Shown here: one piece after another, positions 22,386-23,100 of the stretch | How positions within the stretch are numbered: the stretch's first letter is position 1 | How the letters are laid out: each line of letters starts with the position of its first letter | From: Eledone cirrhosa | Lineage: Eukaryota | Assembly: GCA_964016885.1 (NCBI GenBank) | Contig: OZ024742.1 | Location: 57,102,001 to 57,166,000, forward strand | DNA: 64,000 nucleotides | Direction of reading: 5' to 3' | The notes under the pieces: generated by a model | Told to the model about the DNA's origin: nothing | Seen by the model: the letters and a program-made list of their open reading frames with translations, nothing else | The model's database searches: none | Position numbers and translations under genes: made by a program

Positions 22386-23100
22386 TAGTAGTTTACTCTC
22401 TCACTCACATATTGAATCGTTTAAGTTTGTGAAATAGACTGGTTTACACACGTGGCTGTCGCTACCAGCATACTACTCTATATCGCTGTATAGTAGATGC
22501 TTGCATTTAATTTTCGATAAAGGTTCTAGGCACAACCTATGTTACCATCGCCATCCTATCACCATGGGACTTGGAGACTGGACCCGAATGCTACCATTCT
22601 ACTATACAACGATGTGGAACTGCTTTTTCTAATAACCAACTTTTCACTTTCTTATTAATTTGTGTTTGAGACACGTTGGCCTAGTACTTTTGGCGGGAGC
22701 GTAAATATTTGTTTTCTAATCTCCGGCCACCGCGTAAATTTGTAAATCATAGGCCGATCGGCGGACAGAGTTGTATCAGATTCCAGTTGCTAATCACTTT
22801 ACTGTGTCGGCCGTCTCAAAGTCATAGCCGGCATGAACTGAAGTTGAATTCTGCCGATCGATTGGTTATTGATTAGGTGATACTCGCTGATGAAGCCACA
22901 TGCGCCGATTATGCATTGTTGCATAATATATGCAGACAGAGGGTGCAGTGCACTCTACTGCTGCATTAAGTGTGACCGAAACTCGAGTCCGGGAACTACT
23001 ATAGGCACCCGTTTACGTGTGTTGTATTGAAGCGAATAACTATGTGTATACTCTGGGAGTGTATTCTACATTTCCTACTGAGTACGCTGAGATACAACCG
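22386..23100 (+). mobile_element. non-coding PLE-pLTR-like repeat with a large-stem-II HHR; second copy at about 31000-31590
   Basis: 22560-23100 aligns with 31005-31547. Both copies lie next to (TA)n tracts. Confidence 0.7.
22883..22993 (+). ncRNA. type I hammerhead ribozyme with an 84-nt branched stem II
   Basis: ctcg-CTGATGA-agccaca...tgtgacc-GAAA-ctcgag-TC-cggg, with palindromic loop III ACTCGAGT. Predicted cleavage after 22989. Confidence 0.8.

Follow-up and report, generated by a model that had tools for sequence, protein, structure and literature searches.

Long-stem-II hammerheads in Eledone cirrhosa are real and abundant; they vary a known ribozyme in a way that has apparently not been described before, and come in two architectures whose function is, for now, predicted. 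The window (the whole stretch of 64,000 nucleotides that was analysed) carries one on its forward strand at 22883-22993, which reads as a type I hammerhead with an open stem I and in which the required core and three helices can all be laid out. This motif is real, beyond chance. By a small margin over even, we favour the view that it belongs to the terminal repeat of a Penelope-like element (PLE); that its 84-nt loop II forms a pseudoknot with the stem I flank, likely bracing the RNA for cutting; and that the rod-shaped arm of one Hydra clade is likely a separate docking or protein surface. This view starts from features seen directly: core, stems, copy number, a layout that is partly tandem, and a complementarity whose position is shared by about eight lineages while its sequence differs.

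The motif at 22883-22993 comprises, all on the forward strand: the stem I 5' strand (22883-22886), which pairs with 22990-22993 over 4 bp; the core CUGAUGA (22887-22893); a stem II domain of 84 nt (22894-22977); and a last stretch (22978-22989) made up of GAAA (22978-22981), a palindromic stem/loop III of the dimer type, and GUC, with cleavage predicted after 22989. The stem II domain begins with an A-C apposition at 10.1/11.1 and a 7-bp base (22895-22901 with 22970-22976), and then widens into a junction with two hairpins. Hairpin 1 (22908-22927) has 8 bp and a 4-nt loop. Hairpin 2 (22931-22965) has outer helices of 5+3 bp that are common to all subfamilies, and a variable inner part. The 5' strand of the junction contains CGCC (22903-22906), the predicted pseudoknot partner of a strand 5' of stem I (22876-22879) that reads GGCG in the family and has one C>T change in this copy.

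The initial annotation had described a canonical core, a short stem I, a palindromic loop III and two stem II hairpins. All are present in the sequence, and the majority sequences of subfamilies A1, A2 and A3 fold likewise; hairpin 2 is longer than was then given (22931-22965). The term canonical holds for the letters of the core motif and fails at position 10.1-11.1, an A-C mismatch. In place of the G10.1-C11.1 pair, A1 and A2 have A-C, A3 has A-A, and family B (the hammerhead at 60437) has U-G. Such mismatches are frequent in published short Hydra hammerheads (PMC8557442, supplement table). The minimal hammerheads of PLE pseudo-LTRs (Cervera & de la Pena 2014, PMC4209133) share with those described here the type I topology, a short stem I, location in a terminal repeat, a palindromic stem/loop III for dimer cleavage (short here also), and a U3-A8 variant, found in family C. 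They differ in helix II, a small-looped helix of 6-8 bp there; here the core halves are 48-100 nt apart, with either internal loops or a three-way junction between them, and the window has 84-85 nt at 22883 and 60437, 63 nt at 26041 and 36 nt at 31740. Moreover, the available text of PMC4209133 describes no stem I-II pseudoknot, and G10.1-C11.1 is often lost in the present families.

A private change at 22975 breaks one stem II pair in the window copy, whose hammerhead fold lies 7 kcal/mol above its own free fold, against about 2 kcal/mol for the family A majorities. Engineering of allosteric hammerheads makes use of stem II. The domain had been proposed to be a natural allosteric switch of this kind, with cleavage toggled by binding of a ligand or protein; the engineered precedent is mentioned in PMC3088659, and the weak A-C or U-U pair at 10.1-11.1 could serve as a communication module. 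The folds give allosteric regulation no support: majority sequences favour a ribozyme-compatible stem II; the insert's minimum free energy (MFE) structure equals the centroid in all three family A majorities, with the ribozyme fold within that 2 kcal/mol of the free fold; the Rfam comparison found no conserved alternative fold or aptamer family; and the 10.1-11.1 mismatches occur in the short Hydra hammerheads too. A natural switch is therefore highly improbable.

Hammerhead censuses use descriptors or models with a short stem II. A de novo descriptor that leaves stem II uncapped was run on 1.064 Mb (the window, 200 kb of adjacent sequence and 800 kb of evenly spaced sequence). It gave 121 matches, compared with none in the reversed sequence and 1, 1 and 0 in three shuffles. 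Stem II lengths of 8-20, 21-35, 36-55, 56-75 and 76-140 nt account for 65, 22, 23, 2 and 9 matches, respectively. Inserts of at least 56 nt thus make up 11 of the 121, at least one of them a false long call. Within the first 664 kb, two tandem arrays supply 21 of the 43 short matches, one long match is false, and the descriptor missed the decayed window copies at 22887, 31342, 60441 and 26045. Genome-wide, a long-arm pattern with a gap of 72-100 nt found 4,762 matches versus 2 in controls, and 21 of the first 30 loci pass a structural scan. Metagenomes yielded 116 loci with a long-arm pattern, of which two pass the structural scan, neither convincingly; a Hydra protein compared with metagenome contigs found no relative in 35 stretches (0/35).

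Rfam model RF00163 (Hammerhead_1) scores the 22883 motif at 15.3 bits, against a cut-off of 34, and needs a 75-nt insertion to do so. No Rfam hammerhead is among the matches listed for the window (150 of 201), and none reaches the gathering threshold in six loci. The miRNA matches that Rfam gives in the window are microsatellite artefacts below the cut-off. The initial annotation had inferred a single overlooked subclass: the long arms are indeed structured, belong to unrelated PLE families and are missed by Rfam, but they form at least two architectures, not one subclass. As thousands of copies escape Rfam, and 11 of 121 descriptor matches have at least 56 nt in stem II, counts of ribozymes in animals may be biased; since long arms are missed, so may be statements that some PLEs lack hammerheads. 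Three long-arm types fit neither architecture: L310:3555-3683 (94 nt), L094:6230-6366 (102 nt) and L315:3455-3571 (82 nt). Of these, L310 and L094 are located behind divergent Hydra endonucleases. Long tandem arrays of a 310-nt unit, each unit with a short hammerhead, occur at L141:5300-8050 and L172:280-3400 and resemble classic retrozymes.

The host of the 22883 motif is a family A copy (22258-23102, forward strand), an ORF-less Penelope-like unit with a ragged 5' end; it breaks off at 23102, about 45 nt short of the (TA)n end of the family, whose unit is about 860 nt. A search of the genome (3.0 Gb, 1,796 contigs) gave 2,527 first-look candidates; scoring of 40 of them showed 93-96% identity. 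With an exact-core pattern, the genome has 736 matches and the reversed control none. Copies have a sharp (TA)n 3' end about 275 nt past the motif start, ragged 5' ends, and in some cases part of a second repeat lying 839-860 nt upstream. No ORF is present in the majority unit. A PLE ORF lies within 1.6 kb upstream in only 2 of 62 copies, a different ORF in each, and no autonomous partner was found in the loci searched or among the best 40 genome hits. By this layout (ORF-less, sharp 3' end, partial tandem), family A is classed as a non-autonomous PLE. Two contig sets from one sample, of unknown library type, contain family A copies and identified the private letters of the window copy. Non-LTR retrozymes (PMC7229834; bioRxiv 10.64898/2026.07.22.740005) are likewise ORF-less repeats with type I hammerheads and have been proposed to derive from PLEs; according to these sources they form tandem arrays of units of about 170-400 nt with canonical hammerheads, whereas family A units are about 860 nt, mostly dispersed, 5'-truncated and only partially tandem.

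Family A consists of three subfamilies: A1 (22883), A2 (31337) and A3. The A2 copy in the window (31005-31547, forward strand) has its hammerhead at 31337-31449, with a GUA site and a predicted cut after 31444. It had been called a homologue that keeps the two-hairpin layout; the homology stands, whereas the MFE structure of this decayed copy differs from the two-hairpin fold. Both window copies of family A are likely decayed, given their private changes and folds 5-7 kcal/mol off the ribozyme. The majority inserts of A1, A2 and A3 share one MFE fold (and centroid, where computed): the 7-bp base, an unpaired 5' strand, and two hairpins. Across 20 distinct copies, 93.7% of cells pair, versus 27-52% in slid controls. 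Free co-folding of two family A copies gave extensive intermolecular pairing and was uninformative on a double hammerhead.

Covariation within family A, proposed as a check on the insert, gave a divided answer: pairing is conserved, but at the level of subfamilies A1-A3 the insert hairpins show no double-sided change. Compensatory change affects two pairs of the stem II base, and one of these traces to a sub-lineage selected by the search pattern. The first A3 sample came from a pattern that demanded the double change and the second was unselected; the unselected sample has one compensatory change, with a second confined to a sub-lineage. In hairpin 1 a single A-U/G-U change was seen; the outer helices of hairpin 2 are retained, and its inner part gains mismatches or shifts register. 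Substitutions in A3 keep stability better than random placement (p=0.014); for A2 the same comparison is not significant (p=0.097). Copies L479-L492 and L318-L342 of A3 outline a possible stepwise compensatory path in stem II: a paired form, a mismatched intermediate (3 of 14 copies), and a re-paired form in an amplified sub-lineage.

Positions identical in A1-A3, computed with the pattern-selected A3 set, amount to 11/11 in the core and stem I, 58/70 in the insert, 33/36 at -40 to -5, 79/160 at -200 to -41, and 27/40 and 77/100 downstream. The insert is thus only slightly more conserved than the downstream flank (77/100). The 36 nt upstream of stem I (window 22835-22882, forward strand), with 33/36 identical, are conserved more than the insert. 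The predicted pseudoknot takes up only 4 of them; could the rest be a promoter or protein site?

Family H, which lies outside the window and is unrelated to A in sequence, has the same two-hairpin layout and 1,794 genome matches. In 18 copies, 94.4% of cells pair; hairpin 1 shows double-sided change in 4 of 13 pairs, and the palindromic stem III shows one. A suspected link of family H to a Neptune ORF was dropped: the Neptune element, which carries a separate short hammerhead, stops short of H. The one or two distal hairpins may be mainly a scaffold that closes the expanded loop, and would then be selected for pairing more than for sequence.

A and H belong to the first architecture (class 1), in which a predicted pseudoknot joins stems I and II. 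In about eight ORF-less lineages, the strand that follows the stem II base matches the stem I 5' flank by complementarity, in a sequence specific to each lineage. These lineages are A, H, C, I and J together with three smaller ones (P119/P335, P284/P343 and P060). The strands involved are the unpaired strand that comes after 4-8 bp at the base of stem II, and a flank 5-14 nt upstream of the core. Most members, at 48-63 nt, carry a single distal hairpin; A and H, at 84-97 nt, carry a pair. Their tandem units, at spacings of 528-998 nt and in one case 1,224 nt, are too short to hold an ORF. At least four Watson-Crick pairs between the stem II loop and the stem I flank are predicted: 4 bp in A1 and A2 and 5-6 bp in C, H, I and J, with 3 bp in A3. 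The pairing is retained in 92% of cells in H and 86% in A; no double-sided change was found within family A (20 copies) or H (18).

A scan took the best helix between flank positions -14 to -5 and insert positions 7 to 17, with a score of at least 12, in 62 clusters built from 348 distinct matches. Such scores occur in 11 of 30 long families, where permutation expects 2.1 (p=0.0005), in none of 20 short and in 1 of 12 medium families; among the 11 long clusters are an A copy with a deletion, two that are related to each other, and a row of the rod clade that is probably spurious. De-duplication dropped seven clusters (the deleted A copy, three doubtful ones, and three second members of related pairs) and set nine rod-clade clusters apart, which left 14 lineages with one copy each. 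For these 14 non-rod lineages p=0.026, in a window chosen with five lineages already seen and only three more found later; six control window pairs give p=0.11-0.78. Half of the lineages (7/14) score below 11, one of them being family A as represented by its A3 copy.

The fixed position of this complementarity bears on a further possibility, that the long arm is a tolerated passenger: loop II would grow through local inverted duplications during PLE copying, and the arm would be selected only for folding out of the way. Stem II lengths do form a continuum from 12 to about 100 nt, the family A hairpins are near-perfect palindromes whose inner hairpin 2 decays between subfamilies, and internally deleted copies occur. 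A passenger, however, leaves unexplained both the fixed-position complementarity to the stem I flank and the conserved non-canonical motifs of the Hydra rod, and the deleted copies are singletons rather than amplified subfamilies among the copies examined. We think it quite improbable that the arm is no more than this.

A bracing pseudoknot, the favoured explanation, accounts for the junction 5' strand through a known hammerhead mechanism, pairing with the stem I 5' flank. Watson-Crick pseudoknots between stems I and II are common to the hammerheads of Perreault et al. 2011 (PMC3088659), which reports that they raise rates 20- to over 100-fold; as given there, the length analysis of figure S4 leaves out the repetitive type I class. 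The HDV-like type III hammerheads of toad and termite (PMC7936874) also carry the pseudoknot strand in an internal loop capped by an extra hairpin. That hairpin is about 20 nt, on helix I of a type III ribozyme; here the extra domain sits on helix II of a type I, dimer-type ribozyme in retrotransposons, with up to two hairpins and about 65 nt. A working sequence of events can be proposed. Two copies in a tandem transcript would pair through the palindromic stem III, as described for dimers (PMC4209133; PMC6765202); in class 1 the pseudoknot would replace the usual loop I-loop II contact and align stems I and II; and a cut after the GUH triplet would release unit-length RNA, with the pseudoknot and the whole domain predicted to stay on the 5' product. 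For one PLE in vitro, PMC11167929 reports that hammerhead cleavage is not needed for insertion. The recurrent pseudoknot, if it forms, is a possible route to faster cleavage. Published accounts portray PLE hammerheads as slow, with few tertiary contacts.

Family C provides the window's other example of class 1. Its hammerhead (26033-26132, forward strand) has a 63-nt stem II and a predicted pseudoknot of 6 bp (26033-26038 with 26061-26066); the U3-A8 core variant is family-wide in 28 sampled copies and has already been described (PMC4209133). A word resembling a 5' splice site lies 15-30 nt past the cleavage site at 26150-26215 (forward strand) and in loci L292, L284, L343, L119, L089 and L118. 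In family C, a branch-point-like word and pyrimidine tract come next, and the common 3' end of the element precedes AG. The arrangement suggests that pseudoknot-class families may retain a PLE intron directly behind the ribozyme.

The second architecture (class 2) is an unbranched rod, found in families B, E, F and G and in the L091/L320 type, all in 3' UTRs of one Hydra clade. The clade holds 19 endonuclease rows with support 100/99 in a midpoint-rooted tree free of named references. All 19 rows have inserts of 78-92 nt, and the rod pattern matches 16. In 26 G-type copies, aligned by sequence only at a mean identity of 63%, RNAalifold predicted 8 pairs, of which 6 show compensatory change. 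A 26-pair model of the rod pairs in 84% of cells, versus 30-42% when slid, a level that none of 500 shuffles reach. Tree-aware tests gave p=0.022 for the middle stem, p=0.022 for the base and p=0.31 for the top stem; when all pairs of the rod alignment were scanned for covariation with a tree-aware test, none was significant (best E=3.7). A search for a pseudoknot in the rod gave no support, with p=0.054 for the 5' flank and p=0.81 and 0.92 for the 3' flank.

Two copies of a non-canonical motif, about 12 nt apart, mark the rod: a closing pair; a purine opposite G; one bulged base; and U-A. The pair of motifs occurs in 21 of 33 sequences (two in doubtful register) against 24 of 990 shuffles, a count that describes rather than tests it, since the motif was defined on the same sequences. 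It is absent from A, H and four other long hammerheads. Protein binding, which the initial annotation proposed for the extra domain, is plausible in the Hydra rod alone, where these twin A-G motifs are a candidate site. One might guess that the rod, lacking a detectable pseudoknot, presents its two A-G/bulge/U-A motifs one helical turn apart as a docking or protein surface, a role suggested by the motif conservation together with protein-assisted cleavage in a Poseidon element (PMC11167929), whose insertion in vitro did not require cleavage.

In the window, the rod is represented by the family B hammerhead (60437-60548, forward strand), which lies in a Hydra 3' UTR, belongs to the clade with the twin motifs, and has an 85-nt rod and a predicted cut after 60544. 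A two-hairpin junction like that at 22883 had been assigned to it; the majority of 24 copies is an unbranched rod, and the side hairpins appear only in the mutated window copy. It had also been attributed to a Naiad element, which requires an N-terminal GIY-YIG endonuclease and the motif DKA. The hammerhead instead sits 613 nt past the broken 3' part of an ORF (58642-59828, forward strand) that ends in GIY-YIG, with DKT and CxCX5C. The C-terminal endonuclease, DKT, the CxCX5C linker, CxxC and CxH, and insertion into (TA)n are Hydra-clade features, and the definition of Hydra in Craig et al. 2021 (PMC8557442) fits this ORF. The assignment to Hydra rather than Naiad thus follows from motifs rather than from a tree with named reference proteins. 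An N-terminal RWK motif can be read, in broken frames, in L136 (a related copy) and, close to where the ORF starts, in L086.

Family D (31740-31810, reverse strand) has a 36-nt rod as stem II and an inverted twin with its core at 32933 (forward strand), and lies downstream of Hydra-type endonucleases in several loci. The long unbranched stem II ascribed earlier to the hammerheads at 26041 and 31740 is confirmed, at 63 nt and 36 nt.

A broader role for the rod motifs can be imagined: the distal domain in general would mainly bind a PLE or host protein, either chaperoning cleavage or recruiting the RNA for reverse transcription, and ORF-less elements would capture it in trans. Five Hydra lineages, with endonucleases that share only about 45-70% identity, keep both the sequence and the spacing of the twin A-G motifs. 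As reported, the Poseidon hammerhead cut only with its own ORF protein (PMC11167929), and for R2, an extension of the 5' ribozyme serves as a binding site for the element's protein (PMC6765202). Yet the inserts of A, H, C, I and J have no common sequence motif, the twin motif is absent from A and H, and other Hydra families do with a stem II of 12-38 nt. Protein binding as the main role is, in our judgement, rather unlikely. A more speculative model, which we put forward tentatively and consider unlikely, would make PLE hammerheads modular RNP switches: the stem II domain of one Hydra clade, old, conserved in sequence and 80-90 nt long, would use its twin motifs to hold the telomerase-like PLE protein, so that self-cleavage is coupled to the assembly of the RNP, while branched, pseudoknotted arms would have evolved separately in ORF-less families. 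If so, long-arm and permuted forms would explain the PLE families reported without hammerheads. The clade-wide Hydra motif is a candidate site at which the PLE protein recognises its RNA. Natural large stem II domains could also serve as scaffolds for ribozyme engineering.

The published Hydra hammerheads (Craig et al. 2021, PMC8557442, file S2) resemble those described here in their 3' UTR location, (TA)n targets and 10.1-11.1 mismatch. They differ in loop 2, which is 3-10 nt in all 26 Hydra rows (25 families) of that table; its longest loop 2, of about 35 nt, belongs to a non-Hydra plant element marked as deviating. As described there, cores were searched with a 7-17-nt spacer, and eight families are marked half core. 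The literature searched contains no PLE hammerhead with a stem II domain of 50-100 nt; related variants may be shown in Lunse 2017, in Hammann 2012, or in the supplementary material to Perreault 2011 and to Cervera 2014. Hammerhead variants with additional helices are mentioned in PMC13725137, and no stem II domain was found in the available text of two of the three sources that it cites (PMC10085705 and PMC10162972).

The 3' ends of Naiad_Ovul (one of the half core entries) and Naiad_Obim in the PMC8557442 supplement, inspected by eye, contain all parts of a hammerhead in permuted order: the cleavage site and stem I 3' strand, then GAAA, then CUGAUGA. Judged by this order, they look like the non-circularly permuted hammerhead of the PMC10085705 kind, which would be relevant to the reported lack of hammerheads in Naiads.

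The window contains further hammerheads with a short stem II, at 41605, 42034, 28567 and 33840 on the forward strand and 57327 on the reverse strand. The one with its core at 28567 had first appeared as a 65-nt hammerhead at 28522, a false long call. Hammerheads with a 14-nt stem II form the largest of the sample's short-stem clusters (35 distinct copies). Fragments of GIY-YIG endonucleases of another PLE type, 60% identical to each other, lie at 26846-27325 (reverse strand) and 45057-45620 (forward strand). Non-LTR reverse transcriptase ORFs were found at 9156-12581 and 54560-56488 on the reverse strand and at 17469-20937 and 39790-41229 on the forward strand; one is stop-free over 1,141 aa, and several copies show 86-95% identity.
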